Shown: positions 485 to 63,153, counted from the first letter of the stretch. The stretch: DNA of 64,000 nucleotides from Escherichia coli (GCF_030013595.1 NZ_CP122769.1), one strand, 5' to 3'. Program-made: numbers and translations. The notes: a model not told the origin generated them from the letters alone.

Positions 485-495
485 AAAGTAACTTT
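485..495. repeat. Palindromic box AAAGTNACTTT, copy 1 (gAAAGTAACTTTa)
   Basis: Read directly; lies between convergent umuC-like and DsbA-like genes. Confidence 0.8.
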
Positions 496-1303
496 AGGCC
501 CCGCGAGCTTTTTCGATTGCGCCCTGCAAAGTTGCTGCGTCCATAGCCCCGGGGATAAATGTGGTAGTCGCCGCATTCGGCTTTTTCATATTCATAATGA
601 TGAAGCCGGGTGTGCCGGTGATCCCAAGCGCTTCGCCCAGCTGCATGTTGCCGGAGATCACGTTTTCATATCGGTTTTTTTCCCTGTCAGAAAACGTGCT
701 GTTAAACCCTGACTTATCCACCACAGTATTAAAGTCGCTGAGTTCGAATTTGCGTTGAGAGGTCATGAAGGTATGAGCCACAGCCATCAGGTTGTTGTGG
801 TATTTACGATAGGCTTCAGCACCGAAATTCTGATAGACGTGCAGACCCGTAGCGGCCCCCATGGCAGATACAGGTTTTGAACCGGCAAAAATCGGGAATT
901 CTTTAAAGAAGAATTTTACATCTTTGCTCTGATTCATTACCGATTCAACAACAGGTGTAACCCGCATGCAGTAAATACACTGATAGTCGAAGAACTCGAT
1001 TACCGCGACGTCGGCGTCATCCGGGCCGATGTTTGGCGTCTCCTTGGTATCCAGCAGAGCTGGCGCATATGGAATTATTCGTTCCACTGAGGCACTTACG
1101 TTCTGATTTTCCAGCGCCTTACCTGCTTCCACTAAATAATGGGGATTTTTTACCAGGTAAGTAGCGGCAATTTTGCCAATTTCTTCCTCACTGAGCACCT
1201 TCGGTTTAAAATAAGTTGCCGCGATTAACGCCGAGGCAGCGGTAGCAATTACCGCAGAAATTAAAATCGTGGCCATCGGTTTTAAATAAAATTCTTTAGA
1301 CAT
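494..1303 (-). CDS. DsbA-family thiol:disulfide oxidoreductase, N-terminally membrane-anchored
   Basis: 269-aa ORF; N-terminal hydrophobic helix; thioredoxin-type CxxC (FFDYQCIYCMR); C-terminal GITGTPGFII typical of DsbA fold. Confidence 0.75.
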   Translation of the reverse strand: MSKEFYLKPMATILISAVIATAASALIAATYFKPKVLSEEEIGKIAATYLVKNPHYLVEAGKALENQNVSASVERIIPYAPALLDTKETPNIGPDDADVAVIEFFDYQCIYCMRVTPVVESVMNQSKDVKFFFKEFPIFAGSKPVSAMGAATGLHVYQNFGAEAYRKYHNNLMAVAHTFMTSQRKFELSDFNTVVDKSGFNSTFSDREKNRYENVISGNMQLGEALGITGTPGFIIMNMKKPNAATTTFIPGAMDAATLQGAIEKARGA

Positions 1304-1409
1304 AGCTACCTTTATGCTTTTCAGCCTGTTAGTTATTAACCTGCGATGGATTATACTGGCCCGGTAAATCGGAATTATTCGTGAAACAATGCTTTTTGGA
1401 GATTAAAGG

Positions 1410-2021
1410 ATGATTAGGCAGGGCTTTATACTCACAACCGCAATGCTTTTGAGTGGTTGTGGATATCATTTCGCAAACCAGGTAGATGCGTACGATCTAA
1501 TGCCTCGTCCTGTTACAAATAAAAGGTTTCAGATAGTCCCTCCGGACGAAAGTATTCAGTCCAGAATGTTTTCAGGCCGTTTTGCTGATGGATTAGCAAA
1601 AAAAGGAGTCATTATTTCCACTCACCAGCCAGATTATGTGCTCAGGTTCCGAATGAGCAGCTCACAGGAGAACATGCAGTATAGCGAGCAGCTTCTTACT
1701 GGGGTGACAGGCTACGTTGTAGATAAAAAGACAACGAGAACTGACAAGCATGGCGAATCGCATACTGACTATGACTACAGGCCGGTCGATGGGGTAATAG
1801 GCACTGAGACGATGTCGCAGATGCACTATATGCGACAGCTGGATGTCGAGGTATACCCGTCAGCGAAAGGAGCAAAGCAGGTTCTGAAAGTGAGTATGCA
1901 AAGCAATGCACCTGTGCCGTCAGACAGCATTGCTTATTCAGCAATGATCGACGCCTTTACTGATAAATTTGATGCGCCGCTGCGTTCCGGAAATTATGTT
2001 GCAGTGATCCCCTGGAACTGA
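1410..2021 (+). CDS. Lipoprotein of unknown function
   Basis: 203-aa ORF; lipobox AMLLSGC near N-terminus; GGAG upstream of ATG. Confidence 0.6.
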   Translation: MIRQGFILTTAMLLSGCGYHFANQVDAYDLMPRPVTNKRFQIVPPDESIQSRMFSGRFADGLAKKGVIISTHQPDYVLRFRMSSSQENMQYSEQLLTGVTGYVVDKKTTRTDKHGESHTDYDYRPVDGVIGTETMSQMHYMRQLDVEVYPSAKGAKQVLKVSMQSNAPVPSDSIAYSAMIDAFTDKFDAPLRSGNYVAVIPWN

Positions 2022-2048
2022 AAGCAGACGGCGGGAAGAGAATGTTCA

Positions 2049-2059
2049 AAAGTGACTTT
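2049..2059. repeat. Palindromic box, copy 2 (aAAAGTGACTTTt, centre G)
   Basis: Read directly; between convergent stops at 2021 and 2081. Confidence 0.7.
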
Positions 2060-2080
2060 TGGACACGCACATAAACGTGG

Positions 2081-2949: not shown

Positions 2950-2960
2950 AAAGTTACTTT
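2950..2960. repeat. Palindromic box, copy 3 (ggAAAAGTTACTTTTg)
   Basis: Read directly; spans the DsbC-like stop codon and the 18-bp gap to the next gene start. Confidence 0.8.
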
Positions 2961-3703
2961 TGCGCAGCGCCCATTTGGGTCACCAGGTTTTCCGGGCTCA
3001 GCCACCCCGTAAATAACTGCGGTTTGCCGCTTAGTGTCACCATGGTAGGAGTACCTTGCAGCGGGATTGTTGAGGCCACCTGGAAATGCGATTTGATAAT
3101 GTTTAAGCAAGCCTCATCAGGACGTCCTTCCGGGATAGTTGAAACCGGATTCATCGCTGCATCCAGAGCTTCGTTTGGCTTTGCTGAACACCAGATTTTG
3201 GCCATGTTCCCGGCTACTACCGAGTTCAGTCCTGCACGTGGGAATGCAAGAAACTTAATCGAAATACCGGCATCAAGATAAGACTTCAGATCATGATGCA
3301 GTTTTTGGCAGTATCCACAGGTTATATCGGTAAAGATAGCAAGCCGGTATTTTTCGTTTGGTGATTTGTAGTCGATGGATTTTGTTTTGGATGCGAATTC
3401 CCGGACGCCCATTAAAATGGCCTGCTCAGTGGTGTTTACCACATCTTTACCTTTCACGTGGAATAAGCTTCCGGTAAAAATGTAATCTCCGTCTTTGCTC
3501 ACGTAACTTACCCCCTCCCTGGAAATCACCGTAAAAATATCTTTTACTGGCGAGGGTTCGACGTGCTCGATTGAAAGCCCAATGGCTTTGAGCTTATCCC
3601 GGGCTGCATCTGGCAGTACCATTGTATTAACCGGCTCGGCATTCATCGTGAAGGCGGTACTTAATGAAAGAAGTAATACCGATGCCTTAATAATTTTTTT
3701 CAT
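2954..3703 (-). CDS. dsbC: DsbC-like periplasmic disulfide isomerase
   Basis: 249-aa ORF; signal peptide MKKIIKASVLLLSLSTAFT; CGYC active site (FTDITCGYCQKLH); AAGGAG SD. Confidence 0.8.
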   Translation of the reverse strand: MKKIIKASVLLLSLSTAFTMNAEPVNTMVLPDAARDKLKAIGLSIEHVEPSPVKDIFTVISREGVSYVSKDGDYIFTGSLFHVKGKDVVNTTEQAILMGVREFASKTKSIDYKSPNEKYRLAIFTDITCGYCQKLHHDLKSYLDAGISIKFLAFPRAGLNSVVAGNMAKIWCSAKPNEALDAAMNPVSTIPEGRPDEACLNIIKSHFQVASTIPLQGTPTMVTLSGKPQLFTGWLSPENLVTQMGAAQK

Positions 3704-5042: not shown

Positions 5043-5053
5043 AAAGTAACTTT
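5043..5053. repeat. Palindromic box, copy 4 (ttAAAGTAACTTTTac)
   Basis: Read directly; 4 nt after the stop of the 4473..5039 gene. Confidence 0.8.
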
Positions 5054-10578: not shown

Positions 10579-11994
10579 TCAGTTACGTGTGCCACGAATA
10601 CTTTCAGTGAAAGCCTTCCGTTGCAGGCGACGGTTATCCCAGGTTGAAATGACGTCCGAGCTGGTACCGACCTGGCTGTGCGATAGCTCATAGGCGGCTT
10701 TAACCTGTTTTGAGAGATTGTCTGTTAATCGGTTGAGATCATCCCTTTTACCCGACAGCGACTCACTCGGTATGCTCATGGTTGAAATTTTGGCCTCAAC
10801 CTGGCGCAACATGTTGATTACGAGGCTCGTCGCAGCAATAGTGCTTATGTCCTGAATGTATGCGTACCCTTCCGGTGCTTCGAATGTTTGCAAAGAGTCG
10901 ATAATGGTCGGGATGCCGATATAGGAGATAATGCGTAATTCATCATCTGAAACACGAACGTCGTTGATGATTTTTTTCTGTACGTTTAAAAGAAGATCAG
11001 AAATGGTATCCTTCAATCCCTTAAAACCACCGTCATTAACTTCTGACATGACAAGGCACTGAGCCTTTCGTGGGGATGATGGATCTGGTGCCGGAGAACA
11101 CTTGAGCATTTTAATTGATCCGCCAGCTGGTGGCCCCATGATGTAATCCGTGACAGTCATGGTAGACGGGCGGACTTCCATTCCCGCTTTTTCGCCTTTG
11201 CTATCCCAGTTGATAATGACAGTACCCACGAGAGACATAAGTTGTTCTGCCAATTTATAACCGGATAACTCCGTTACCCCTCCGATGTTCATTGTTCCCT
11301 TATCAATATCCATGAACGACATATAGAAGAGGTTACCACTGAATTTTTCAGCGAACTCTTCGGGATCCTTTGCTTTAACCTGAGAAGTGACAGCTTCAGG
11401 TGACTTTGTCATCGATGAGCCAAAATCAGGAATGAGACCATTAATCGATCCCAGAATTGAGGCTGGTCCAGAGCTAACTGAGTTAGCGAACTGGCTTGGC
11501 GTACCCACGTTTTCAGAAAGGAAAGAGTAAGTTGCATTGCATGAATCTTTCGCAAATTTATTTAGCGCTTGCAGTTTGTTTTGGATGTCATTAATCGTTG
11601 CAGCACAGTCAGCACAAATAGCTGAAACAGCAACGTTAAAAGCATAGATAGCCGCACCCTGGGCAATACCACGGGCCACCTGCACAAGCTGGTCCCCGTT
11701 GATCATGCTGAAGGACCCAAGAAAAACGTCAATACCATTACAACCGACAGAAGCTTTTGGAAACGACATGGAAACAAGGTTGGTATTAACGTTTGTTGTT
11801 CGGTAAGACATTGACCCGCCAACTATGCCTGTACGGGTTGCTGTGGAAAAGGTGGCCGGGCTGGTAGACGTCATCATGCCATTGAAAATGTTACGCATTG
11901 CGTTGTCTGCATTTGCAGTCGGGGCTAAAATTGCAGCACAAACAGAAAGAGACAAAAGTAACTTTTTGAAGTTGAAAACGGCATTACTGCGCAT
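10579..11994 (-). CDS. trhH: F-type T4SS protein TraH (IncHI TrhH)
   Basis: Start set at ATG 11994 (MRSNAVFNFKKLLLSLSVCAAILAPTANA signal peptide); SVGCNGIDVFLGSFSMINGDQL matches the TraH GCGGIDxFxGSFSxIN block. Confidence 0.85.
   Translation of the reverse strand: MRSNAVFNFKKLLLSLSVCAAILAPTANADNAMRNIFNGMMTSTSPATFSTATRTGIVGGSMSYRTTNVNTNLVSMSFPKASVGCNGIDVFLGSFSMINGDQLVQVARGIAQGAAIYAFNVAVSAICADCAATINDIQNKLQALNKFAKDSCNATYSFLSENVGTPSQFANSVSSGPASILGSINGLIPDFGSSMTKSPEAVTSQVKAKDPEEFAEKFSGNLFYMSFMDIDKGTMNIGGVTELSGYKLAEQLMSLVGTVIINWDSKGEKAGMEVRPSTMTVTDYIMGPPAGGSIKMLKCSPAPDPSSPRKAQCLVMSEVNDGGFKGLKDTISDLLLNVQKKIINDVRVSDDELRIISYIGIPTIIDSLQTFEAPEGYAYIQDISTIAATSLVINMLRQVEAKISTMSIPSESLSGKRDDLNRLTDNLSKQVKAAYELSHSQVGTSSDVISTWDNRRLQRKAFTESIRGTRN
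11955..11965. repeat. Palindromic box, copy 5 (cAAAAGTAACTTTTTg), inside the trhH signal-peptide codons
   Basis: Read directly; about 20 nt from the trhF stop / trhH start junction. Confidence 0.75.
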
Positions 11995-14137: not shown

Positions 14138-14938
14138 TTAATAATCCTTTAACATAACTTTATTTGTTAAAGTGTTGAACACATCCTGACGGTGACTGGT
14201 GAACATAGTGTCATAACGTAATAGTTCCATCAAATCATCACTAACTTTTCCTAACCGGATGTCAGCAGACAATTCATAAGCCCAGGCAAAAACTTTCGTT
14301 TTAAGTGAAACACTCTCTTCAATATGCCCTTGTGAGAAAGCAATTGTACGTGGGAAAAGAACGACATCGTTAATTGTTTTTAACGATGAATAACCAATGT
14401 CTTTAATAGCATCAGCTGTAGTTGGTTTTAAACCAAAGAAAACACTTACAAACTCTGGTGCGAGCATTGAGATAAAGAACACCTGCATAAAGTAGTCATT
14501 CTGTATATCAACACATTTAGAACGCAACTCATGAATCTTCTTGGGATTATAGATATCCACTGTACCATTCAGAAAAGTCACTTTTTCACCGGCATCGTAA
14601 ATACCATAGTCAATATCATTTGTATCATATTCACGAATTACATTGGAATCACCGTCCAAGACCGCAGAAAAAAACCTCTCCCATGTAATTTCCTTTCCGA
14701 GTGTACGCGGAACCAAAAAACTACCTGGACGTGTTTCCACTTCAAAAGCTAAATCAGCGGCTGTACTAAATCCTTTCCCAAATAGGCGACGCTGGAGAAG
14801 AGGAGTCCCAGTTTGATATGCAGAAGATCCATGCACAGGCAATAACATTAAAAATGCACGGTAACTACGAATAAGCGAAATCTCAGTGCGGAAAAGTTTA
14901 CCGAGTAAGCTACGAGTTAAATTATCAGATTCTGACAT
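14138..14938 (-). CDS. trhR: Transfer activator subunit, C-terminal part weakly FlhD-like (candidate IncHI TrhR)
   Basis: 266-aa ORF, first gene leftward of the divergent region; position matches trhR of the R27 Tra1 map as I recall it; FlhD likeness is an eyeball alignment only. Confidence 0.45.
   Translation of the reverse strand: MSESDNLTRSLLGKLFRTEISLIRSYRAFLMLLPVHGSSAYQTGTPLLQRRLFGKGFSTAADLAFEVETRPGSFLVPRTLGKEITWERFFSAVLDGDSNVIREYDTNDIDYGIYDAGEKVTFLNGTVDIYNPKKIHELRSKCVDIQNDYFMQVFFISMLAPEFVSVFFGLKPTTADAIKDIGYSSLKTINDVVLFPRTIAFSQGHIEESVSLKTKVFAWAYELSADIRLGKVSDDLMELLRYDTMFTSHRQDVFNTLTNKVMLKDY
14574..14584. repeat. Palindromic box, copy 6 (gAAAAGTCACTTTTTc, centre C), inside trhR-candidate CDS
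   Basis: Read directly. Confidence 0.7.
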
Positions 14939-15014: not shown

Positions 15015-15025
15015 AAAGTAACTTT
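15015..15025. repeat. Palindromic box, copy 7 (gAAAAGTAACTTTTag)
   Basis: Read directly; about 80 bp from the trhR-candidate start. Confidence 0.8.
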
Positions 15026-15409
15026 TAGTATTTTCTTAAGGCTTGAATAAGCCTTAAATCTATCCCTTCAACCACACCGCTTACTTGTAACACTTTTTAA
15101 CCAAACTGACCAGAATTTTATCAAAATTTCTTCGCATGCTAACGAAATGTGAAGCGATTAAAAAAAAACCTAAATCCAGCCCCTCCCAACGTTGGATTAG
15201 AATAACGACGTCTTTCACTGACCGTCATAAACTGACATTTTTACTTTTCATCAACCTCATGCTTACATAGGATCACTAAACAAAAGTGTCACTATGGACA
15301 AAGTTCCATAGGGTCATTTTTTTTGGAAAAGTGGCACTAGATATATGTATAACTTTAATAGAGCAATGCACATTATCAAAAGCAATAATCCACAATGGTC
15401 ATTCCCTCA

Positions 15410-15420
15410 AAAGTAACTTT
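15410..15420. repeat. Palindromic box, copy 8 (cAAAAGTAACTTTag)
   Basis: Read directly; about 190 bp upstream of the traH-like start. Confidence 0.8.
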
Positions 15421-16829: not shown

Positions 16830-19800
16830 ATGATGATGAATTTCAGGGCGCTGTATTTATGTATTAAACGGATTTTGGGGATATTCTCATCTCAGGAGAA
16901 TGATGCAACCTCTGTAATGATTGAGGATATATCAAGCCTCTCTCCTTTTGCGCAGATTCTAGGAGATCAGAAGTACACTGTTCCTGATCATCCAAATCCA
17001 GAAGTCCTGAAATTCATCGAGTATCCAACTCGTCCGACGGGCATACAGACATTTAATGAACAGTCAATCCTGTCTCTGTATCGGGAAAAGCTGCACTCAA
17101 TTTCAATGATGTTAGCTATCAGCGATAGCGACATCAGGGACGATGCATATACATTTACTAATTTAGTATTAAAGCCCTTGGTTGAATATGTTCGCTGGAT
17201 ACATCTTTTGCCAGCTTCCGAAAATCATCATCATAATGGTATTGGTGGGTTACTTTCTCACAGCCTGGAAGTGGCCATACTCTCTTTAAAAAATGCGCAT
17301 CACTCAGAACTGAGACCAATCGGATATCAAGATGAAGAAGTAGTCCGTAGAAAAGTATATCTCTATGCTGCGTTTATCTGTGGTTTAGTCCATGATGCCG
17401 GAAAGGTTTACGATCTCGATATTGTAAGCCTGAATTTAGCTAGTCCGATCATTTGGACGCCAAGCTCACAAAGTCTTCTTGACTGGGCACGTGAAAATGA
17501 CGTGGTTGAATACGAAATCCACTGGCGAAAGCGTATTCATAATCAACATAATATCTGGTCCAGCGTTTTCCTTGAGCGAATCCTAAACCCGGTATGTCTT
17601 GCATTTTTGGATCGGGTAAATAAAGAACGTGTTTATTCAAAAATGATCACCGCCCTAAACGTTTATACTGATGGGAATGACTTTTTGTCTAAATGCGTGA
17701 GGACCGCTGATTTCTATTCTACTGGTACAGACCTTAATGTTTTACGTGACCCTATCATGGGTCTGCGTTCTAATGATGCAGCAGCAAGGGCCATTAGTAC
17801 CATCAAGCACAACTTTACCAGTATCAATATCAACAATTACAATGCTAAGCCTATGCACATCATTATCGTAAATGGTGAGGTATACCTTAACGAGAACGCA
17901 TTCCTTGATTTTGTTCTCAATGATTTCGAATTACATAAATATAACTTCCCTCAGGGAGAGGCTGGTAAGACGGTATTGGTAGAATCCCTAGTTCAACGTG
18001 GTTACGTCGAGCCCTATGATGATGAGCGTGTCGTTCACTACTTCATTCCGGGTATCTATTCGGAAAACGAAATATCAAACATCTTTAGAAATGGGATAGG
18101 GAAACTAGAATTCTATAACCTTCTTAAGCTAAGGTGGATTGGTTTAATCTTTGATTCCTATAAAATCCCTGACTCAGTGCCGGGTCTTTTTAGCGTTAAT
18201 GCCAATAAAGACTTTATTTACATTGACGAGCAAAAAACAGTTACTGAATACAGAAGACCAGTGCCCGGTCGGGACGCTATAACTAAAATTACTGATACTG
18301 TTGAGACGGCTGTTCTTAAGGTTAATGATTTAGGCCGCTCCACTGCCTCTATTGATGTTGATATACATTCTAAGAAAAATGAAGGCTCATCCGACGATTT
18401 TGAGAAGAAAGCCGAAAGTGATAATGAAATTGATAATGACACGCAGATAGTTAAATCTGAGGGTGAGGAAGCAGCTGATCCTGTCATTCCTGATATAGAA
18501 GAAAGTGAAGATGAATCGGCAAAGGACACGGAATCCCATGTCCTGGTCAACCAACTTCATGAACTCCTTTTAAGCGCTCCACTTTCCAATGACTATATAG
18601 TGTGTGTAGATGCTGTCCCCTACCTCAACATAGATGCCACTATGGCATTGCTGCCGGGATTAGATGAAAAAGCATTTAGTGAAGAGCCCTATTTCCAACT
18701 GACATTCAGAGAAGGCTCTCTCGATGGAATGTGGATAGTAAGGGACATTGACGATCTGCGTTTAGTCCAGCTCGGCGATAACTGCGCCGGGTTCCAGCTC
18801 ACCTATCATGAGCCAAGAAGGCCAACAACTTTAAAGTCACTTTTCAATACTTCTATGTATCAGGCATTAGTGATTAATGATGAGTCTTCTGTTGAAAACT
18901 CTGCCCCACGTCCAAAGCAAACGCTTGAGCTGCCTCCCCCACGTGTAAATGCACTCGAAGAACATTCTGGCGACGTGGAATATCATGGAACCGATAGTGC
19001 ATCCGCGACTGGTCCGCTGAAAACTGAGGCTGTGGAATATGAACATTATCAACATCTTTTTGAGGAAGAAGATGAAGAGCATGAGATCATTGATTATACC
19101 GATTTCACACAGCTTAGTGTTTCTCGGCCAGAAGTCGGTAGTTGTGCAACAAGCTCTTCGGTCCATAATGAAAAGCTTCTCCCCGAGCCGTCAGAATTAC
19201 CAGAACTTAACCGAGAACAGAACGCTGATCCCCAGGGTACGATTGAACGCTCTATGGATGTTTCTGTAGGACAAGAAAACTCAGAACCAGATACTGAGGG
19301 TAACTGCCCACCACCAGCTGAAGTTGTGTATTCCCAGACCGAAGCAGCCGCAACCAGTGTGATGGCAAGTGAAGAGCCCGCCTTACCTCCTGTACTTGAA
19401 GAATCAAATGGAGAGCATGCGCCCACAGACGCTAAGGGGCATCATCTTTCGCCAGCACTGGCCAGACTGTTCGCCCCAACAGCACCGGTAGAAAAACAAA
19501 ATCCCAAGCGCAACCGGAATAAATCATCGGACAAAGCAGAAGTACAAAAACCAGCATCACCTGTTTCTGGTCACAATCTGAACAGTAAAGTCTTTGCAAC
19601 TACTGAATCAGACCAAAATGGTGAATTCTCGCTTATAAGCGAAGGTGACGTTACAGAGCTTGAATTTGTAGAAATTGCGTCAGTACTGCATCAAATTCTG
19701 TCCAAAATGGAGGTGGCGTTTAAAAGAAAGCGCAAAAACAGATTTATGGTAAGTACTCCTAATACTCTCTATCTGACCCAATCTTGCGTGGAAAAATTTG

Positions 19801-19982: not shown

Positions 19983-22066
19983 TGTCAGATTCGAAGAGGA
20001 CTAACCTCCATGCACAAGAGAATTTTTATCGGCCTATTCTTGAGTATCGTAGTGCCTCAATACTTTTGATTTGTTCGGTTTCTATGCTTTATATGGGACT
20101 TTCTTCAGACGGACTGGACATCGCCCCAATAGTTCTGTTCACCTCAATATTGCTTTTTTTGCTGTGCCTTTATCGTTGCAAAACAGCAGCGCCATTCTTG
20201 ATGGCTCATTGGCGTGTATTCAAGCGACATTTCATGTTCGTTAGTCTTGATTCACTGCGTGTAATTAACAAAAGTAACTTTTTCTCCAATGAGCGAAAGT
20301 ATCGTCAACTGGTTCAGGATTATCAAAATAAAAATAAGGATATACCCGAGCGAAAGTCCTATTTTTGTGATGGGTTTGAGTGGGGCCCGGAACATGCGGA
20401 TCGGGCATATCAAATAGCTAACCTCTCCAGTGATAAACGTGAGATCGAGTTGCCATTCGTCTTCAACCCAATTAAGAGACATTTTGACGCAATGGCTCGT
20501 AAGATGGGCGGCAGCAATGCAATTTTTGCTGTGGAACGTAGGGAACCCATATTTGTAACTGAAGACAATTGGTTTGGTCATACTCTGATAACCGGAAACG
20601 TGGGTACCGGGAAAACGGTGCTACAGCGTTTACTAAGCATTAGCATGCTTCATCTTGGTCATGTTGTTGTTGTCATAGATCCAAAGAACGATGCAGAGTG
20701 GCGAGAATCTCTAATGGAAGAGGCTAAGACCCTCGGTCTTCCTTTCTATAAATTTCATCCTGGCCAGCCAGCATCTTCGGTCTGTATTGATGTCTGCAAC
20801 ACCTATACTAATGTTTCTGACCTAACATCTCGTCTTTTGAGCTTGGTGACAGTTCCCGGTGAGGTTAACCCATTCGTTCAGTATGCCAAGGCTCTCGTTT
20901 CCAATGTGATTTCCGGGCTTTCTTACATAGAGAAAAAGCCTTCTATTTATCTGATTCACAAGAACATGAAAAGCCACATGTCTATTGTGAATCTTACAGT
21001 CAAGGTAATGGAGTCATGTTACGCGAGATATTATGGTTACGATGTCTGGACCGAAAAAGTTAAGTACGTCGCTAACGAAACCTTGCCGGTACGTTTCAAG
21101 CGTCTCGCTGAATGGTTTACGGCTCATTTCATGAATTACGAGGGGTCCGAACAAATAGACTGGTTAGATACTGTTTCCCAGCTTATTGATTACTCAATGT
21201 CCGACCCAGAGCATATGGCTAAAATGACCGCAGGTATTATGCCTGTTTTCGATATGCTCATTGAAAAACCTTTAAATGAGCTTTTATCTCCTAACCCGAA
21301 CTCAGTATCATCAAGAGAAATTGTAACAAGCGAAGGGATGTTCAGCACTGGCGGGGTGCTATACATTTCGCTTGATGGCCTTTCAAACCCCGATACAGCA
21401 GCTGCTATTTCTCAATTAATAATGTCAGATCTGACCTCCTGTGCCGGTAGTCGCTACAACGCTCAGGATGGTGATATGTCAGCTAATTCCAGGATAAGTA
21501 TTTTTGTTGATGAGGCACACTCAGCCATTAACAACCCTATGATTAACCTTCTGGCGCAGGGTCGTGCAGCGAAAATTGCACTGTTTATTTGCACCCAAAC
21601 CATCTCCGACTTTATTGCTGCGGCAAGTGTTGAAACTGCCAATCGAATTACGGGGCTCTGCAACAATTATATAAGCTTGCGAGTCAACGATACTCCTACT
21701 CAGACGCTTGTTGTAGAGAACTTTGGTAAGAGTGCGATAAGCACAAATATGGTCACTTATACGACCGGTTCAGAAACATCTTTGCCGCATAATAACTTCT
21801 CAGGTTCAATCTCAGAAAGAAAGCAGACAACTTTAGAAGAGAGTATTCCAAAGGATCTCTTGGGTCAGGTCCCTATGTTTCACATAGTTGCCAGGCTTCA
21901 AGATGGCAGGAAGGTTGTAGGCCAAATCCCTATTGCTGTTGCTGAGAAACAAATGAAGCCAAACACAACTCTGTCGGAAATGCTTTTCAAGAAGGCCGGA
22001 AAAGTTACTTTGCGTCAAAATCTCGATATCAAAAATCTTAATAAATTTCTAAGGAAGTTGCATTGA
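19982..22066 (+). CDS. traG: Type IV coupling protein (TraD/TraG-family ATPase; IncHI TraG)
   Basis: 694-aa ORF; N-terminal TM helices; Walker A ITGNVGTGKTV; Walker B SIFVDEAHS; ATG overlaps the traI stop. Confidence 0.85.
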   Translation: MSDSKRTNLHAQENFYRPILEYRSASILLICSVSMLYMGLSSDGLDIAPIVLFTSILLFLLCLYRCKTAAPFLMAHWRVFKRHFMFVSLDSLRVINKSNFFSNERKYRQLVQDYQNKNKDIPERKSYFCDGFEWGPEHADRAYQIANLSSDKREIELPFVFNPIKRHFDAMARKMGGSNAIFAVERREPIFVTEDNWFGHTLITGNVGTGKTVLQRLLSISMLHLGHVVVVIDPKNDAEWRESLMEEAKTLGLPFYKFHPGQPASSVCIDVCNTYTNVSDLTSRLLSLVTVPGEVNPFVQYAKALVSNVISGLSYIEKKPSIYLIHKNMKSHMSIVNLTVKVMESCYARYYGYDVWTEKVKYVANETLPVRFKRLAEWFTAHFMNYEGSEQIDWLDTVSQLIDYSMSDPEHMAKMTAGIMPVFDMLIEKPLNELLSPNPNSVSSREIVTSEGMFSTGGVLYISLDGLSNPDTAAAISQLIMSDLTSCAGSRYNAQDGDMSANSRISIFVDEAHSAINNPMINLLAQGRAAKIALFICTQTISDFIAAASVETANRITGLCNNYISLRVNDTPTQTLVVENFGKSAISTNMVTYTTGSETSLPHNNFSGSISERKQTTLEESIPKDLLGQVPMFHIVARLQDGRKVVGQIPIAVAEKQMKPNTTLSEMLFKKAGKVTLRQNLDIKNLNKFLRKLH
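20271..20281. repeat. Palindromic box, copy 10 (cAAAAGTAACTTTTTc), inside traG
   Basis: Read directly. Confidence 0.7.
22001..22011. repeat. Palindromic box, copy 11 (ggAAAAGTTACTTTgc), 3' end of traG
   Basis: Read directly; 55 nt before the next gene start. Confidence 0.7.
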
Positions 22067-26454: not shown

Positions 26455-26739
26455 TTATTTAAGCTGGTCATCGTCTCTGGCCAGCATAGCCCAACCATTC
26501 GACTGGTTTTCGCGGGAGTAAGGATTCATTTCAAAATAACTATCTACCGCGTCGCTGTCCGCAACAGAACTGTTGTTAGCTCTCTTTGAACCCTGAACCA
26601 CTACAGCATCAACCTCTGCGGCTTTCCCGTTGCGCTGTACCAGGATTTTAACCGTCTTGGGCTTACGTCTTGCGAGCAGTTTGTTGGCGATAAAAAGCAC
26701 AACAATCCAGGCCAAAAGCACGTATAAAAATTTATTCAT
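26455..26739 (-). CDS. Small membrane-anchored protein
   Basis: 94-aa ORF; N-terminal TM helix; AAGGAGG SD. Confidence 0.6.
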   Translation of the reverse strand: MNKFLYVLLAWIVVLFIANKLLARRKPKTVKILVQRNGKAAEVDAVVVQGSKRANNSSVADSDAVDSYFEMNPYSRENQSNGWAMLARDDDQLK

Positions 26740-26902: not shown

Positions 26903-26913
26903 AAAGTTACTTT
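26903..26913. repeat. Palindromic box, copy 12 (cagAAAGTTACTTTTcc)
   Basis: Read directly; intergenic, about 165 bp upstream of the 26739 start. Confidence 0.8.
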
Positions 26914-27095: not shown

Positions 27096-27203
27096 TCAGT
27101 CACCACCACCACCTCCTCCTCCTCCTCCTCCACCGCCACCATCACAACCACCAGCTATGCTATTTTCACCATTACAATCACCTCCGAGGGGGTTCAAATG
27201 GCT
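27096..27203 (-). pseudogene. 3' part of IS66-split small ORF (poly-Gly tail)
   Basis: Joining to 29736..29938 after removing the IS and one duplication copy gives a 100-aa ORF ending ..NPLGGDCNGENSIAGGCDGGGGGGGGGGGGGD. Confidence 0.6.
27196..27203. repeat. 8-bp target-site duplication AAATGGCT (left copy) of IS66-family element
   Basis: Identical octamer at 29736-29743, immediately outside both inverted repeats. Confidence 0.9.
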
Positions 27204-27288
27204 GTAAGCGTAAACTGACCGCCGTATGTAGCCATCAGACGAGAATTGGTAACTTAGACGCCCATCTGATATAGACGGACATCTAAGT

Positions 27289-27714
27289 ATGGAATTACAG
27301 GACTGGCGAAAAGAACCTCGTAAAAACTATTCGAATGAATTCAAACTTCGTATGGTGGAACTGGCATCACAACCTGGAGCTTGTGTTGCACAGATTGCAC
27401 GTGAAAATGGCGTCAATGATAATGTTATTTTCAAATGGCTCAGGCTCTGGCAGAACGAAGGGCGTGTTTCGCGGCGTCTTCCGGTAACGACCTCTTCTGA
27501 CACTGGCGTTGAATTATTACCTGTAGAAATAACGCCGGATGAGCAGAAAGAACCTGTGGCGGCCATTGCGCCGTCTTTATCCACTTCCACTCAGACCAGA
27601 GTCAGTGCCAGTTCCTGCAAGGTGGAATTCCGTCACGGTAACATGACGCTGGAAAATCCATCGCCAGAGCTGCTCACGGTGTTGATCCGTGAACTGACCG
27701 GGAGGGGAAGATGA
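27289..27714 (+). CDS. tnpA: IS66-family accessory protein TnpA (orf1)
   Basis: 141-aa ORF; HTH-like N-terminus; first gene of the IS66-type trio. Confidence 0.85.
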   Translation: MELQDWRKEPRKNYSNEFKLRMVELASQPGACVAQIARENGVNDNVIFKWLRLWQNEGRVSRRLPVTTSSDTGVELLPVEITPDEQKEPVAAIAPSLSTSTQTRVSASSCKVEFRHGNMTLENPSPELLTVLIRELTGRGR

Positions 27715-28061: not shown

Positions 28062-28091
28062 AAAACTCCTGACCGCATTATAAAAACGGTC

Positions 28092-34491: not shown

Positions 34492-34502
34492 AAAGTAACT
34501 TT
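34492..34502. repeat. Palindromic box, copy 13 (gaAAAAGTAACTTTTTt), abutting the ParB-like promoter
   Basis: Read directly. Confidence 0.85.
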
Positions 34503-34617
34503 TTTTAAAAATTTTCCTGAGGCAATACTACTCGATCCGTCCGTTTTAAATCTTCACAACAGTGGGCCGTTTTTACGTTTAAGCAAAATAACTGGTTCAG
34601 AAGGTGACTCAGAGAGA

Positions 34618-34628
34618 AAAGTTACTTT
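34618..34628. repeat. Palindromic box, copy 14 (gAAAAGTTACTTTTCc)
   Basis: Read directly; 126 bp from copy 13 in the same intergenic region. Confidence 0.85.
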
Positions 34629-38302: not shown

Positions 38303-40272
<1,970 letters not shown>

Positions 40273-40353: not shown

Positions 40354-40512
40354 TTATATCATTGGCGCTAACACCAGGATAGCAAATACCTCCCTTGTTC
40401 CGTCTTTCATCCGCAACTCGCAAAGCGAGTTTCGTGTGAGCCAGGTGAATATCAACAGCGTTAAACAAACTATTAATATGCACAAAACAATGGGTTGGTT
40501 CGGCATTTTCAT
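40354..40512 (-). pseudogene. hok: Hok-family membrane toxin gene with IS21-derived C-terminus
   Basis: [45 protein letters not shown] matches Hok; after codon 46 the frame enters the IS end (LVLAPMI stop) instead of LAYESGK. Confidence 0.85.
40374..40378. repeat. 5-bp target-site duplication CCAGG (right copy)
   Basis: See 38243-38247. Confidence 0.85.
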
Positions 40513-40560
40513 GGCCTTCTTCTCCTTGCATTTAAGCAGGCAAGAGGCTACGCTGTGTGT

Positions 40561-40617
40561 GACTAGCATACAGGGGCCTCGGGTTAATTGAAAAATTACT
40601 CGGGGCTTTCTGCTTTT
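40561..40617 (+). ncRNA. sok: Sok-like antisense RNA (ends approximate)
   Basis: Plus-strand TTGCAT, 17 nt, TACGCT promoter at 40526-40554; antisense to the hok leader; ends in a CCTCGGGTTAATT/AATTACTCGGGG hairpin plus a T-rich run; layout as in R1 hok/sok. Confidence 0.5.
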
Positions 40618-40673
40618 ACCACAGTCAAACAGTGTTACCGCTGGCTGGGGCAAAAGCCTCCAGCACCAGCGTC

Positions 40674-43740: not shown

Positions 43741-43751
43741 AAAGTTACTTT
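43741..43751. repeat. Palindromic box, copy 15 (gAAAGTTACTTTcc)
   Basis: Read directly; intergenic. Confidence 0.8.
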
Positions 43752-45260: not shown

Positions 45261-45491
45261 TTATTTTGGATTCGAATTACAAAGGGAGCACCGACATTTT
45301 TCTGGGGGCTCCCGCAGAGAAAAAGCGGTGAGGCTATGAAGACGAAGAGGAGGTATTCGACGAAATACTGTATGGCCACAGGAGAGCTTCAGCACCCATA
45401 TCCTGCCGTCTCGCTCGCCTGTAATGATTTCAACATGTACAACGTCATACCACGTAGTTGTATTTCTCACTTTGTTTATGCTTCCTGACAC
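45261..45491 (-). CDS. Small Cys-containing protein (start uncertain: GTG 45491 or GTG 45470)
   Basis: 76-aa ORF with SCGH..CRCSLC; preferred over the overlapping AT-rich ORF 45116..45379. Confidence 0.45.
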   Translation of the reverse strand: MSGSINKVRNTTTWYDVVHVEIITGERDGRIWVLKLSCGHTVFRRIPPLRLHSLTAFSLREPPEKCRCSLCNSNPK

Positions 45492-45796
45492 CGTGTGAAC
45501 GCAATCTTCGTCTGGATGCGTTCATAGATGGAAAACTGCCTTTCAATGGAACCGGCATTAGACAGTAATTCATGAAGCTCAGCAGAGTCTGTATCGGGAA
45601 CGATAGCTACAGAAACTCCATATCTCCGTCCAATTTTGATTAGGTGCGCAAGCTGTTCTTTTTCGGATTCTGTGAGCATTGCCAGATCTCTTCCGGACAC
45701 CTGCTCTATAAACGAACCAAGGTTTTTGGGAAAAAAGGGTTCGGCATCAGAGTTATGTGCTGGGCGCGTCTGCGGCTTATCGAAGCTATTGGGCAT
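45476..45796 (-). CDS. Hypothetical protein
   Basis: 106-aa ORF. Confidence 0.55.
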   Translation of the reverse strand: MPNSFDKPQTRPAHNSDAEPFFPKNLGSFIEQVSGRDLAMLTESEKEQLAHLIKIGRRYGVSVAIVPDTDSAELHELLSNAGSIERQFSIYERIQTKIAFTRCQEA

Positions 45797-45947: not shown

Positions 45948-45958
45948 AAAGTAACTTT
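45948..45958. repeat. Palindromic box, copy 16 (ttAAAGTAACTTTcccgg)
   Basis: Read directly; intergenic. Confidence 0.8.
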
Positions 45959-48306: not shown

Positions 48307-48546
48307 TCAGTATTCCTCCTGAACCCCATTAGGCTCTGTTGTGATTTCATATTTAATACCGCCAGGTGCTCCCACAGCGTCCGCGACCGACTCACACAGC
48401 AGCGAGAGATCGTTGAGGGTCATTGGGTGTTCAATGTCCAGCGTGAAGAGTTTCCCGGCTTGCTTGGCGGCTGTCTTGTCAGCATGTTCAGCATTAAAAA
48501 GGTATACGGTGTGTTTTTCCTGAGCGGGGGTATTTTGATTTTGCAT
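48307..48546 (-). CDS. Small protein, paralogue of 43118..43342
   Basis: 79-aa ORF; DIEHPMTLNDLSLLCESVADAVGAPGGIKY shared block; AAAGGA SD. Confidence 0.65.
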   Translation of the reverse strand: MQNQNTPAQEKHTVYLFNAEHADKTAAKQAGKLFTLDIEHPMTLNDLSLLCESVADAVGAPGGIKYEITTEPNGVQEEY

Positions 48547-48678: not shown

Positions 48679-48689
48679 AAAGTTACTTT
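48679..48689. repeat. Palindromic box, copy 17 (ttAAAGTTACTTTTctgg)
   Basis: Read directly; intergenic. Confidence 0.8.
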
Positions 48690-53194: not shown

Positions 53195-53521
53195 CTAAAA
53201 CGCAGGGTTGCCATCGAGGAAGCTCATTGGCTGGCCAATAGCGGATGCCACCCTGAGAATTTCACCTGGTGTGGCATAGCGCAGCATTTCTGAGCGTCCA
53301 AATTTCTGATACTCATCTACTGACATCTTTCTCCACTCGGGGTGAGGATCTTTTCCGCACAGTGACCAGTTGCTTTCAGAGGAATCACGACGGAGAACGT
53401 ACACATCAAGCGAGGCTGTAAGCCCGCTTCCATATCCCCGCTGCGCTACAATACGAACCTGAGAACCATCGTCGCGTTGCAACGTCTGGGTTAATTTCGT
53501 GATAGGATCCTGAGAATGCAT
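53195..53521 (-). CDS. Hypothetical protein
   Basis: 108-aa ORF; GAGGT SD. Confidence 0.6.
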   Translation of the reverse strand: MHSQDPITKLTQTLQRDDGSQVRIVAQRGYGSGLTASLDVYVLRRDSSESNWSLCGKDPHPEWRKMSVDEYQKFGRSEMLRYATPGEILRVASAIGQPMSFLDGNPAF

Positions 53522-53727: not shown

Positions 53728-53738
53728 AAAGTAACTTT
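53728..53738. repeat. Palindromic box, copy 18 (ggtgAAAAGTAACTTTTacacc)
   Basis: Read directly; 130 bp upstream of promoter module copy 7; flanks extend the palindrome (GGTG..CACC). Confidence 0.85.
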
Positions 53739-57391: not shown

Positions 57392-57769
57392 TTAACTAAA
57401 ATTAATAGTCTCAATACTGCTCAAGAATTCTTTTTTTACGTCCGGTGTAAAAGGTATACGTTCAATGTATTTATAAAGTGTCGCAAATGTTTTGGGTTCA
57501 ATGTTTCGGGAGATAATGTCATCAATCGGATCTTCGAACATATTGATAAAGATATCGACATGCTGCTCTCCGCTTTCTGATGCCTTTGAAAGAAGACTGA
57601 CCACTTCAATGTAGCGATTATCCTGCTCTGCAATGAACAACCAGTGCCCTTCGTTAAAGGCGGGTGCAGCGCTGTAGCGTTTAACAACAATTTCTGAAAG
57701 ATTATATCCTGCCTGATTCAGCAGATTATTAAAGTTGAGTTGAGTTGAAATCACGTCTAACGTTTTCAT
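57392..57769 (-). CDS. Hypothetical protein
   Basis: 125-aa ORF; AGGAGG SD; conserved promoter module upstream. Confidence 0.6.
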   Translation of the reverse strand: MKTLDVISTQLNFNNLLNQAGYNLSEIVVKRYSAAPAFNEGHWLFIAEQDNRYIEVVSLLSKASESGEQHVDIFINMFEDPIDDIISRNIEPKTFATLYKYIERIPFTPDVKKEFLSSIETINFS

Positions 57770-57939: not shown

Positions 57940-57950
57940 AAAGTAACTTT
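57940..57950. repeat. Palindromic box, copy 19 (ggAAAAGTAACTTTTgtg)
   Basis: Read directly; 110 bp upstream of promoter module copy 8. Confidence 0.85.
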
Positions 57951-60183: not shown

Positions 60184-60213
60184 AATGTGATTCCTCCGGT
60201 TAGTTCTGGAGTA

Positions 60214-60250
60214 ATCATGACAGAATGAATCTACTGGCTAATAACCTGAG
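60214..60250 (-). promoter_or_regulatory. Conserved promoter module, copy 9
   Basis: Minus strand CTCAGGTTATTAGCC, 16 nt, CATGAT. Confidence 0.55.
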
Positions 60251-60617
60251 AGTAAATATTTTAAAAAAACATTGAGAGAGGGTCTGCAAATTTATACACG
60301 AAGGATTCAAATATAATTTTGTTTAAAAAATTAAGAGCATTCTGAAGTAAAAGTGCATCAAAAAGCATTCATGGATAAATCATGTACTGGTGCCAGCCAT
60401 TTAAACGCGGGCATTGTTCCGGAGTGATTAAACGGTTTAGCATCATAGATTAAAACCAAAAGGAAGGCGTCCTTCCCGTCTCGGGAATATTACTTTCCCG
60501 TTTGCAATTTAAGAGCCACTTAATGAGAAAGTAATAATTAAGTCATGCTCAACTCTACATATTACATTGAGGATGGCGTAACAGGGTACGGCATACTACC
60601 GCACCCTTCTGAAGAGC

Positions 60618-63007
60618 TTATGTTTGAGGGAATTCTATAGCAAATGTGGCCGTGCCAGATTGACCACTTACAGCGGGAGTAACGGGATACGTGCGCTCTT
60701 CACCATTACCAAGATCCAGTGACAGCGATTTAGTTTCACCAGGCTGGACCGTAACTCCGGCAACCGTAACGCCGAACTGGGCATTTTTCTGAACAGTCAG
60801 GGTTCCGTTTAACTGTCCGGTAATGATAGAACCGTCCTGACGCCGCAACACACTGGTTCGGATGATGGCCAGCGGCGTGTTGTCCGTTGCTTTCAGTGCT
60901 ACGGCTGTGGCCAGCGTCTTGAGATTATCCAGCATAATCAGATTCGCAGGCTGGTAGGTAAAATTAAGCGTTTTAGTGGTCCGGTTACCTGATTCGTCAA
61001 TAGCCAGTGCCTCCAGATGATACATCTGTCCCGATTCGTCAGTGTTGGGGAAGATTCTGGGGTATTCCGGAATAAAGACATCCTTGGATAACGGCGTGAA
61101 TGCCAGGGTGACCTTTTCAGAGTTAGGTCCACCAGCGAGCTGAAGCGATGTCAGGGAAGCATCCCCAGAGGCATCAGTAACGCTTATGCGAAGGTTCTCA
61201 AGCCCTTTAACCAGTTTTCCTTCTGCGTCTGCGCCATTAAAACTGAACGCGATAACCGGAAGCGTTGAGTCAATTTTCAGCGGTGCATTAAGCGTTTTGG
61301 TTCCGGTGTTTCCAACAAGATCCGTGGCAGAGACGCTAACCACCGTATAATCCCCGTCCGGTAGACCAGCGTATGAGAAGGTGGCGTTTTTGGTTTATAA
61401 TCGCTTTCACTGACGGTCACAGGCTTCAGCGTGAAAGGTTCCCCCCGGGCATTTTTAAGGGTGGCTTCGAAAACTTTGGTATCCCAGTAGCTGATGTTCC
61501 AGGCGTTGACGCGATCATTATCGGTGGCCGTCATAGTGATTGTCTTGGAGGCCTTGTTTACCTGAGCGACATTAACCACCGGTGGGTTGTTATCCCAGAT
61601 AACCGTAAAATTACCAGCAAGCGCATCGAATATGCTGTCACCATCTTTTCCCGAGTAAAGGTGCAGATACTCAAATCCTTTGTCACTGGTGTAGTTGAAG
61701 TTAACCGTCATCTCGCATGAACTTTGTCCGATAGGTATAGTGCAGAACCAGGCTGCATTTTTTACCGTTCTGAACTTTTGCACGTATGGTCGGGGTTCAG
61801 CGGTTACCTTTATGCGGCTAATGGTGGCGGTTTTAACGCTGATTGAGGCCTGAGTTAACCACTCACTGGTATCACTCCGGTACATCTCTTTAGCCACTAT
61901 CTTCGGGGCTATTTCCATCGCCGGGGCTGGAGTGAAGTTGAGGGAGTTATGATGAATTCGTCTTACTCCTCCTGCCAGAGTCTGGAATTCATGATAAGTA
62001 TCCCCCACATTGGGATATATGTATTTGAAAGTATAAATATTATAAGTGCTATCGGACGTCTGGAAATTCGAGTCCGCCCAGCCATATTTGGAACCGTTAA
62101 CAGCAGTAAAGTCACTTTTTTTCCTTAATACCCGTACGGAAATAGGGTTCTGGAAGACGGTCATGCCAGACTGATAAGTGACCCATGATCCGGTAGTGGC
62201 GTCCTGCACCTGGATGATATCGTCAGGCTTAACCCGATCAATTACGCTTCGGCGGCTTAGTTCGATCCTGTTTCCCGCTTTGTCATAAAGGTAGATCCCC
62301 ACTTTATATTCAGAGCGGTTTTCCGGTGCCAGGGCATTGCTGCTTGCGTCGGCGACTTGAACGGTTACGCTACCTTCCACTGTATTAATTTCCGCTGGCT
62401 TTTTACGCTCCACTCCAGCGGCATCGGTTATGAAATATTCAGCATTAGCAAGCCCGGAACCTTTATCACTCAGTCCATTAAAGACCAGTGCCTGGACGCT
62501 GGCGTACTGCATACCGGCTGGTACTGAAGTGAAGATCGCTTCGCTGCCAAAGTTCCACCCGTTTCTCGTATAACTTATGGTACCCGTTGCCGGAGGCGTT
62601 CGGTCAATTGCAAGCGGGTAATCCTGCCGGGAGACCTCCTTCCCTTGCAAGTCGGTAATCACCTCTCTGAGGGTGAAGCTATCTTCTCCCATCGCTGGTA
62701 CGGTCAGAGTCTTGCCGTAATAATCAAAGCCTGTCGAAGATGTGGTACGGTCATCTACGGTAACCAGGCTGCTTTTCGTGCTCCAGATGAGGCTCCCGTC
62801 ACTTTTCAGCAGACTGAGCGTAATATAACGGTCCAGACCGGAAATAACGGCAACGTCAAAGCTCGTTACCGGATTAATCCATACGGATGCAGGCGATACG
62901 GTCTTTTTAACGTTCAGGGTATCTTTAAAGCTGAATTCTGCGATTTCAGCGGAAGCTCCTGCGCTGAAACCTGCAAATGCAATAAGCAGGGCTAGTTTGA
63001 TTTTCAT
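60618..63007 (-). pseudogene. Secreted multi-Ig-like (Big-type) surface protein, split by a frameshift in an A5 run
   Basis: Signal peptide MKIKLALLIAFAGFSAGASA; repeated ..D.AGN.. beta-sandwich motifs; ORFs 61277..63034 and 60618..61343 join if sense A5 (plus T5 61387-61391) were A6, giving about 796 aa. Confidence 0.7.
62108..62118. repeat. Palindromic box, copy 20 (tAAAGTCACTTTtt, centre C), inside Ig-like gene
   Basis: Read directly. Confidence 0.65.
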
Positions 63008-63142
63008 GGGTTGTCTCCTGATCAGGTTCCCCATGATACTTTTTCAGTGTTCGAGATCTTTTCGGGAAAATAGCTAATTTTAATGTTTTTCTTTTCTGCC
63101 CGGCGGGACTTGTTTTGTTTACGTAAATGCAAAAATACAAGA

Positions 63143-63153
63143 AAAGTTACTTT
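63143..63153. repeat. Palindromic box, copy 21 (gAAAAGTTACTTTTTg)
   Basis: Read directly; about 135 bp upstream of the Ig-like gene start. Confidence 0.85.

Follow-up and report, generated by a model that had tools for sequence, protein, structure and literature searches.

A sharply conserved palindromic box dispersed over IncHI plasmid backbones, with an orphan ParB-like protein as candidate binder

Background

Which protein recognizes a short palindrome that recurs many times, mostly between genes, in a single stretch of plasmid DNA, and what is the palindrome for? This question is raised by 64,000 nucleotides of the Escherichia coli sequence NZ_CP122769.1 (GCF_030013595.1), referred to here as the window, with coordinates counted from its first letter. 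The palindrome, hereafter the box, is an 11-13 bp element of the form AAAAGT-W-ACTTTT, whose 11-bp core with ten specified bases and a free centre is AAAGTNACTTT; the 13-mer, AAAAGT-N-ACTTTT, is AAAAGTNACTTTT, and the box is also written AAAAGTWACTTTT and AAAAGTAACTTTT. The feature is real, strongly selected and family-wide in IncHI plasmids, and the set of boxes is apparently undescribed. The candidate binder is a 394-aa orphan ParB-family protein encoded in the window (33217-34401, minus strand), termed P1.

Judged from its sequence, the window is IncHI2 backbone: hundreds of IncHI2/IncHI2A plasmids, found in Escherichia, Salmonella and Enterobacter, match an 8-kb piece of it at 100% identity. 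The complete Salmonella plasmid pSE08-00436-1 (here pSE; NZ_CP020493.1, 264,914 bp) served as annotated reference.

The box is enriched, sharp and confined to the backbone

Exact matches to AAAGTNACTTT number 21 in the window, each starting exactly where the original prediction had placed it. The excess had been claimed to lie beyond chance and AT composition, and dinucleotide-preserving shuffles of the window (n=100) bear this out, with a mean of 0.13 copies, a maximum of 2 and 0/100 shuffles reaching 3. The 13-mer is present at 11 of the 21 sites, against 0.00 expected. The centre base is A or T in 17 copies and C or G in four, three of the latter coding (G at 2049; C at 14574, 18833 and 62108), just as described before. 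The statement that most copies extend to GAAAAGTNACTTTTC did not hold: this 15-mer occurs at just one of the 21 sites (34616-34630), and GA/TC flanks are found on both sides of one site, on one side of ten and on neither side of ten. The single longer extension, GGTGAAAAGTAACTTTTACACC, was found at 53728, as predicted. In a logo pooled from the 51 sites of the reference plasmid, position -6 is A in 65% of half-sites and position -7 is G in 38%; only +/-6 (A/T, 65%) adds information to the core, and beyond +/-7 there is no conservation.

One-mismatch variants of the core are not enriched in the window, where one was observed against 2.75 expected, and over the whole of pSE they are enriched about twofold (25 vs 12.6). 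The box is remarkably sharp, exact copies far exceeding one-mismatch copies. Lone half-sites (AAAGTNAC) show no clear excess over composition, except in the oriT repeats and in iteron-like repeats near repHI2.

The boxes lie preferentially between genes. With RefSeq annotation transferred to the window, the split into 15 intergenic and six coding copies that had been reported before was reproduced, 14 of the former being strictly intergenic and that at 2950 overlapping only the last bases of a gene; given an annotated non-coding share of 23%, the probability of at least 14 of 21 intergenic sites is 2e-5. Eleven sites lie 82-222 bp upstream of start codons, namely those of trhR, mobI, the P1 gene (two sites), six small minus-strand genes and an Ig-like-domain gene. 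Four others (485, 2049, 2950 and 5043) are at convergent or tandem gene ends, and six are inside genes, two of these, 11955 (trhH) and 22001 (traG/traD), being close to a gene boundary. No common promoter module was seen after the boxes at the 11 upstream-type sites, and a promoter and terminator scan was uninformative, promoter-like sites being fewer than in shuffles.

The complete plasmid pSE carries 51 boxes, all of them in the backbone, and its resistance region, about 70 kb of transposons, integrons and resistance genes at 110-180 kb, has none (P = 2e-7). In an unbiased palindrome scan of pSE (half-sites of 5-7 bases, gaps of 0-8), the box was the sole dispersed palindrome once copies of insertion sequences (IS) were excluded; a second dispersed palindrome, for other ParB paralogs, was not found, all other enriched palindromes being internal to six ISApl1 copies. 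Among the pSE boxes outside the window there are copies in the divergent region upstream of parM, next to hha and inside the htdA operon, as well as 253 bp upstream of the first Tra2 gene and 195 bp upstream of trhF. The Ig-like gene at pSE 252612-255068 has boxes about 160 and 220 bp upstream, and a third Ig-like gene has none upstream.

Box positions are kept across the IncHI family

The box recurs in further IncHI-type sequences. There are nine copies in 22.7 kb of the IncHI1 plasmid pHCM1 (L008), seven in 40.6 kb of an IncHI1A-type sequence (L027) and eight in a 16-kb Klebsiella michiganensis fragment (L030), and three IncHI1B/pNDM-MAR-type sequences from Klebsiella hold 15 in 41 kb (L009), 23 in 40.6 kb (L028) and nine in 18.7 kb (L029). 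Contigs from Yersinia (L011), a Leclercia-type source (L013) and Buttiauxella (L015), in which P1 is 44-51% identical, contain 7, 5 and 7 boxes per 21 kb, respectively. The box is the top palindrome in the IncHI1, IncHI1B, IncHI1A-type, L030, L011, L013 and L015 loci. No copy is present in 40.6 kb of IncC sequence from one plasmid (L010) or in about 99 kb of five other loci, IncC-type or other, that encode distant homologues of P1. IncC-type homologues are accompanied by either the IncC parS or no dispersed palindrome, and no intermediate box variant was found in the loci examined; a scan of genome contigs for distant relatives returned only close IncHI-type loci.

Positional conservation was assessed by aligning +/-120 bp around each window site to IncHI1, and nine sites could be reliably aligned. 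In eight of the nine, none of the ten specified bases differs between IncHI2 and IncHI1 (P ~3e-11), the flanks being 67-79% identical and the centre base often different. Kept sites include one in trhR, one near the 5' end of trhH and one near each end of traG/traD, as well as the two flanking oriT and the two upstream of the P1 gene; the sole alignable site that is not conserved is that in traI at 18833, with centre C. In IncHI1B, where TrhR is 28% identical, there are two boxes in the trhR-mobI intergenic region and two at the traF/trhH junction. The oriT repeats are bracketed by two boxes in all lineages examined.

P1, an orphan ParB-like protein preceded by boxes

IncHI2 encodes four ParB-family proteins, the par1 ParB beside ParA and the orphan paralogs P1, P2 and P3. 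P1 matches Pfam PF17762 (HTH_ParB) and, at its helix-turn-helix (HTH), also Caulobacter ParB; the Pfam search detected neither PF02195 nor PF08535 (KorB), the C-terminal domain being modelled at low confidence. An AF2 model built on an alignment of 19 orthologs (mean pLDDT 72; 247 residues >=70) has a confident core (residues 15-255), predicted to consist of a ParB/Srx-like N-terminal domain and a ParB-type HTH; residues 256-321 form a disordered linker rich in Pro and Glu, and the C-terminal domain is helical. Foldseek searches with this model returned ParB-CTP, Noc and RK2 KorB structures, all at E ~1e-8, the Noc structures 7ol9, 7nfu and 6y93 being among the top matches; target-normalised TM-scores were 0.64-0.67 to 8qa9 (KorB-KorA-DNA) and 0.59 to Caulobacter ParB-parS. 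P1 is predicted to have a ParB fold, and its invariant residues fall in the ParB boxes FNTR, RQGxCRxR (here RQGACRIR) and GN. The small open reading frames (ORFs) neighbouring P1 have no HTH or other Pfam/NCBIfam match.

The P1 gene is itself preceded by boxes, two to six perfect copies in six of seven lineages and at least one in every lineage sampled, the chance of at least two boxes in 250 bp being 0.002 per lineage. Two perfect A/T-extended copies are found in IncHI2 (at -96 and -222, the distances given in the original prediction), IncHI1, L011 and L015, and by alignment in L024, and IncHI1B has five or six. The Leclercia-type L013 has one exact distal box at -257 and a degenerate proximal variant. 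An exact proximal box lies at about -100 to -120 in IncHI1, L024, L011, L015 and IncHI1B; this proximal box is extended to A5-6GTWACT5-6 and sits just upstream of a conserved candidate promoter (34445-34475, minus strand).

Two large plasmids of E. coli and Salmonella (NZ_CP026936.2 and CP101356.1) gave only a P2-type match in tblastn searches of PLSDB with P1, 31.7% identical over residues 36-256 and at one place per record. These plasmids may be natural IncHI derivatives without P1 and could serve as natural knock-outs.

A proposed control circuit and the points that weigh against it

The original prediction took the box for a site of a dimeric protein and not for a terminator or REP-like element, a reading that fits the tests of folding, flanks, conservation and backbone restriction, and for which P1 would be a plausible binder. 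We infer that P1, rather than another protein, is this binder and that the bound protein represses transcription, and the view that the boxes are operator or loading sites of P1, forming a backbone-wide control circuit, is well supported. P1 would bind the two boxes ahead of its own gene, so setting its own level, and would occupy the ~50 boxes over the whole IncHI backbone, including both flanks of the oriT/trhR-mobI divergent promoter region, the long intergenic regions ahead of many small genes, and further boxes found at operon junctions, at certain gene ends and upstream of two of the three Ig-like genes. If P1 acts as KorB does, it would, once bound, repress or insulate neighbouring promoters, and it may slide off the box as a nucleotide-gated clamp. 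The outcome would be one control circuit spanning the backbone.

Several observations weigh against this assignment. The phosphate-binding motif of P1, GACRIR, differs from GxRRxR, and nucleotide binding by P1 is therefore uncertain. Neither a ParA gene nor a KorA-like partner was found next to P1, a distant partner being possible. Residues E182 and Q183 of the recognition helix, which are invariant among P1 orthologs down to ~42% identity, are replaced by V and T in IncHI1B, and the box is unchanged there. A conserved one-mismatch box, AAAAGTACCTTTT, lies ~90 bp upstream of the P2 gene in IncHI2 and in L027, IncHI1B having an exact copy there at -117, and therefore the argument from autoregulation is not exclusive to P1. 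The four window sites at gene ends, counted as convergent, have no promoter to repress. Finally, in IncC-type elements a palindrome ~110 bp upstream of a P1-family gene is bound by another ParB, one with a KorB domain, so that the box could mark P1 as a target rather than as the binder. In view of the P2 box, the helix changes in IncHI1B and the IncC parS ahead of a P1-family gene, we therefore rate the chances that P1 binds the box and regulates from it, as operator or loading site of a dimeric ParB-family protein, at about even.

In a bolder and rather unlikely version, the system would be a partner-less Noc- or KorB-like ParB clamp, the orphan paralog or paralogs loading at 50 or more boxes and coating much of the 200-kb backbone. 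Such a clamp would provide a plasmid-wide layer of self-silencing or self-marking apart from partition, bracketing oriT and the neighbours of the transfer region.

Comparison with known dispersed sites

The systems closest in function and architecture are KorB and its operator (OB) in RK2 and the scattered parS of IncC/IncA plasmids. That the layout resembles KorB operators had been proposed from the outset, and this is supported, the ParB-like gene then pointed to encoding a predicted KorB/ParB/Noc fold. OB is a 13-bp palindrome (TTTAGCSGCTAAA) with a single-base centre, as is the 13-mer of the box, and about 12 copies are dispersed over the RK2/RP4 backbone, at, upstream of and far from promoters. 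Its binder has a ParB fold with a nucleotide-binding-type N-terminal domain, an HTH, a flexible linker and a C-terminal domain, an arrangement predicted for P1 as well, at low confidence for the C-terminal domain. In both proteins the Glu of GERRxR is replaced by Ala (GARRYR in KorB, GACRIR in P1), and KorB retains CTPase activity despite this loss of the catalytic residue (PMC11790492). Autoregulation would be a further likeness, being probable for P1 from the boxes ahead of its gene, and CTP binding, sliding and repression would extend to P1 by analogy only. In contrast, OB has no match in the window with up to one mismatch, box sites are about four times as many, P1 lacks the Pfam KorB domain PF08535, an adjacent ParA (IncC) gene and an identified KorA partner, and its sequence similarity is confined to the HTH.

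IncC/IncA plasmids have 12-14 scattered parS palindromes, and the 14 carried by IncC plasmids are bound by parAB053 ParB in electrophoretic mobility shift assays (PMC10954446). The two plasmid groups are related, a MOBH relaxase and an F-type mating-pair system (MPF-F) being common to IncHI and IncC, and in both a perfectly conserved palindrome core is scattered in the backbone, mostly intergenic, with some copies inside genes. One IncC copy is near the gene of a 'ParB-like regulator' that is 32% identical to P1 and is its homologue in IncC: in two IncC-type elements, IncC-type parS TCTTTCACATGTGAAAGA is found ~108-125 and ~285 bp upstream of this gene (L031 9716 and 9877; L034 9893), and these relative positions equal those of the boxes upstream of P1. 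The outer arms of IncC parS (AACTTT...AAAGTT) equal the IncHI half-sites in swapped order. There are differences as well. The IncC site is 22 bp long, AAAC-TTTCACATGTGAAA-GTTT, with a 14-bp core and an even centre; TTTCACATGTGAAA has no match in the window with up to one mismatch and, conversely, AAAGTNACTTT does not occur in the 40.6 kb of IncC sequence. In IncC the proven binder is a ParB that has a KorB domain and is encoded together with ParA, and IncHI has none such: its ParA-linked ParB is of the P1-phage type, and only the orphan paralogs remain as ParB-family candidates. The window contains no OB and no IncC parS, and on sequence the box therefore belongs to neither system; membership also fails on binder family and partners.

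Two other systems were compared. In Type Ia ParABS the parS binder, whose sites are at or near the par operon, is encoded next to ParA, unlike P1, which has no ParA neighbour, and the par1 operon of IncHI has no box. Noc of the Bacillus chromosome is, like P1, an orphan ParB paralog without ParA, with many dispersed, sharp palindromic sites, and its structures are among the top fold matches of P1; however, it is chromosomal, is membrane-tethered via an N-terminal amphipathic helix, acts in division-site selection and has a different site sequence, and P1 is not a member of the Noc family (19 bits against a cutoff of 315 in NCBIfam TIGR04285).

Alternative explanations

It is possible, if somewhat unlikely, that the box is a genuine binding site of another IncHI protein, such as P2 (alone or with P1), TrhR, TrhY, HtdA or an unrecognised protein, P1 then being one of its targets. 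P2, encoded at pSE 259009-260172 and 32% identical to P1, also has a ParB-HTH and is conserved in IncHI2, IncHI1A-type and IncHI1B plasmids; a near-cognate conserved box stands upstream of its gene, and the IncC-type P1-family gene is likewise preceded by a palindrome that a different ParB binds. Boxes in the htdA operon, within trhR and 82 bp ahead of its start codon would fit a transfer regulator. P2 is disfavoured, however, by its recognition helix, which differs strongly between lineages (KSPTTISSLIR vs ISEMAVRQIIS), more than that of P1 does, the box being invariant, and by its one imperfect upstream site as against two to six perfect ones for P1 in most lineages. TrhR and TrhY have no recognisable DNA-binding domain, and most boxes are far from tra operons.

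The remaining ParB-family proteins were considered and disfavoured as binders. The par1 ParB belongs to PF08775 (P1-phage type), and its operon comes with a separate array of 249-bp repeats and no box in the vicinity, none being found within ~8 kb upstream of the IncHI par1 operon. About ten tandem copies of the 249-bp repeat are directly upstream of the parA-parB operon (pSE 13.4-16.1 kb) and are probably the par1 centromere or regulatory region, unrelated to the box. P3 (pSE 263383-264438, ParB-HTH, 26% identical to P1) was not found beside P2 in the IncHI1B locus examined, where box density is highest; IncHI1B records gave just two tblastn places for P1-like genes. P1, P2 and P3 are each 26-35% identical to the IncC 'ParB-like regulator'.

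A ParB-family binder whose role is chiefly physical, with the boxes as extra centromere-like sites or as elements for positioning, compaction, a Noc-like mark or the organisation of oriT for transfer or establishment, seems distinctly unlikely. The sharpness of the box is typical of parS and Noc-binding sites and not of degenerate operators, conserved copies occur where one would expect no promoter, within genes and between convergent gene ends, the IncC analogue works in partition and incompatibility, and the bracketing of the oriT repeats by two boxes holds in every lineage examined. Nevertheless, no gene for a ParA-type ATPase adjoins P1, IncHI plasmids already have two complete partition systems (ParA/ParB and ParM), and the intergenic bias together with the placement 80-220 bp upstream of genes favours an action related to promoters.

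Recognition by DNA modification or restriction enzymes (orphan methyltransferases, HNH nucleases) or by a host factor (Tus/Ter-, SlmA- or MatP-like) is very improbable. The plasmid does encode several methyltransferases, HNH proteins and a Tus-like protein, and the box is as sharp as a recognition sequence, but targets of restriction and modification are normally avoided rather than enriched at least 150-fold and concentrated in intergenic DNA, and a site for a host factor would be expected beyond IncHI backbones, whereas neither the 70 kb of accessory DNA nor IncC plasmids from the same hosts contain the box. The box is not known to match the Ter, SBS or matS consensus sequences.

The view that the box is non-functional (composition or chance, the remnant of a mobile repeat, or part of a terminator), which the A/T-rich sequence and some copies at gene ends might suggest, is effectively refuted by the shuffles, none of which reaches three copies, and by the positions kept between plasmids with flanks diverged by 21-33%. 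A REP- or MITE-like element was rejected because no flank is conserved, the sequence being random beyond +/-7, and there is no excess folding energy: the mean minimum free energy of 51-nt windows is -7.5 kcal/mol at the sites and -8.8 +/- 4.1 at random windows, and the box pairs with itself in seven of 21 predicted structures. An intrinsic terminator, which would call for a GC-rich hairpin with a loop of at least 3 nt and then a T-run, was rejected likewise, since a one-base centre cannot close a hairpin loop and the arms are rich in A/T; the terminator-like sites detected from 43.5 to 63.4 kb all fall outside the boxes. As to an RNA element, an Rfam search of the window matched sok alone.

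Location of the boxes along the window

The window opens with umuC and the Tra1 transfer region (trhG, trhH, trhR), followed by oriT, mobI, traI/mobH and traG/traD; then comes a long series of small genes on the minus strand, among them hok/sok, methyltransferases, the P1 gene and the Ig-like gene. The first four boxes are those at gene ends: AAAGTAACTTT at 485..495, in the 45-bp gap between the convergent umuC (+) and a DsbA-family gene (-); the 13-mer AAAAGTGACTTTT with centre G at 2049..2059, between two convergent small genes; a 13-mer at 2950..2960, at the junction of two co-directional (-) genes and overlapping the 3' end of a thioredoxin-fold gene (2954-3703); and a copy at 5043..5053, between convergent HAD-domain (+) and HNH (-) genes.

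In the transfer region, a 13-mer at 11955..11965 lies 34 bp into trhH, at the junction with an upstream thioredoxin/TraF-like gene; it is in the same position in IncHI1 and L030, and IncHI1B has two boxes at this junction. A 13-mer with centre C is inside trhR (14574..14584) and is kept in IncHI1 and L030 with another centre base. The two boxes that had been noted to flank the oriT/divergent trhR-mobI region are indeed there, a 13-mer at 15015..15025 on the left flank of the oriT repeats, 82 bp upstream of the trhR start codon, and a copy at 15410..15420 on the right flank, 192 bp upstream of mobI, both kept in IncHI1 and L030. The box with centre C inside the relaxase gene traI/mobH (18833..18843) is kept in neither IncHI1 nor L030 and may be a young or chance copy. 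The coupling-protein gene traG/traD holds two, a 13-mer 294 bp into the gene (20271..20281), kept in IncHI1 and L030, and a copy 60 bp before its stop (22001..22011), kept in IncHI1. With that in the Ig-like gene described below, the six coding copies are those originally listed.

Beyond the transfer genes the boxes are mostly intergenic and precede minus-strand genes. That at 26903..26913 is 169 bp upstream of the start of a small gene (26455-26739), and the P1 gene is preceded by the proximal box AAAAAAGTAACTTTTT (34492..34502; 96 bp) and the distal box GAAAAGTTACTTTTC, the sole full 15-mer (34618..34628; 222 bp). Further copies are found at 43741..43751, 146 bp upstream of a small gene whose 5' side ends at 43600; at 45948..45958, 157 bp upstream of the gene 45476-45796; at 48679..48689, which precedes the gene 48307-48546 by 138 bp and lies 112 bp downstream of a PAPS-reductase-like gene; at 53728..53738, a 13-mer that forms part of an imperfect 22-bp palindrome (GGTGAAAAGTAACTTTTACACC) and precedes the gene 53195-53521 by 212 bp; and at 57940..57950, a 13-mer 176 bp upstream of the gene 57392-57769. 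A copy with centre C is inside the Ig-like-domain gene (62108..62118), and a 13-mer stands 141 bp upstream of that gene (63143..63153).

The oriT array (15265-15340), bracketed by the boxes at 15015 and 15410, is composed of ~45-bp inverted-repeat units AAAAGTGACCCTATG-N9-10-CATAGGGTCACTTTT, and in either arm the outermost 9 nt (AAAAGTGAC) are identical to one box half plus the centre. The window lacks 90 bp, two oriT units, that are present in pSE (L001:15350-15450), IncHI1 (L008), L030 and apparently most other IncHI2 plasmids, whose sequence matches span ~90 bp more at oriT than the window does. Half-site sequence also occurs near repHI2 (250416-251504, minus strand): four iteron-like repeats CAGAAAGTSACTACCGT, ~81 bp apart at pSE 249357-249843, follow the repHI2 stop at a distance of 0.6-1.1 kb. 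They include AAAGTSACTAC, which differs from the box at two positions, and a similar AAAGTCACTAT is found upstream of the P3 gene.

Besides having 90 bp fewer in oriT, the window differs from pSE by extra IS66-family and IS21-family insertions and by a 1-bp deletion in the Ig-like gene. The insertions (27096-29938 and 38303-40272), both absent from the reference plasmid, contain no box; the IS66-family element, with three ORFs (HTH_Tnp_1, TnpB_IS66 and DDE_Tnp_IS66), interrupts a hypothetical gene, and the IS21-family element, with IstA-like and IstB-like ORFs, adjoins hok/sok. The sok antitoxin RNA, the sole Rfam match in the window (81 bits; 40510-40668, minus strand), is beside the hok-family toxin gene. 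The Ig-like-domain gene (60618-63007) is split by the 1-bp deletion into two ORFs (60618-61343 and 61277-63034) and is therefore probably a pseudogene or the result of a sequencing error.

Significance

The original prediction knew of no such box for this plasmid type, and the literature searched agrees, holding no description of the box or of a dispersed IncHI operator, although an older one in subscription journals is possible. What we describe is probably a ParB-type set of dispersed sites that differs from the known ones in plasmid family and in sequence and probably belongs to a ParA-less ParB clade, and it would extend the principle of KorB and IncC parS to ParB proteins without a ParA partner. 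IncHI plasmids are major vectors of multidrug resistance, among them R27/pHCM1 in typhoid, IncHI2 with mcr-1 and mcr-9, and IncHI1B/pNDM-MAR in Klebsiella, and their known regulators, TrhR/TrhY, HtdA and H-NS/Hha, account for tra genes only. A perfectly conserved box in ~50 copies, together with a candidate ParB-family binder, defines a testable backbone-wide regulon, and the box offers targets for curing strategies like the mimicry of IncC parS by SGI1. Were the clamp version true, the system could gate conjugation, establishment in new hosts and fitness cost, alongside thermoregulation by H-NS/Hha. If P1 does act through the boxes, a clinically important family of plasmids would have a control network, so far undescribed, that reaches over the whole plasmid.

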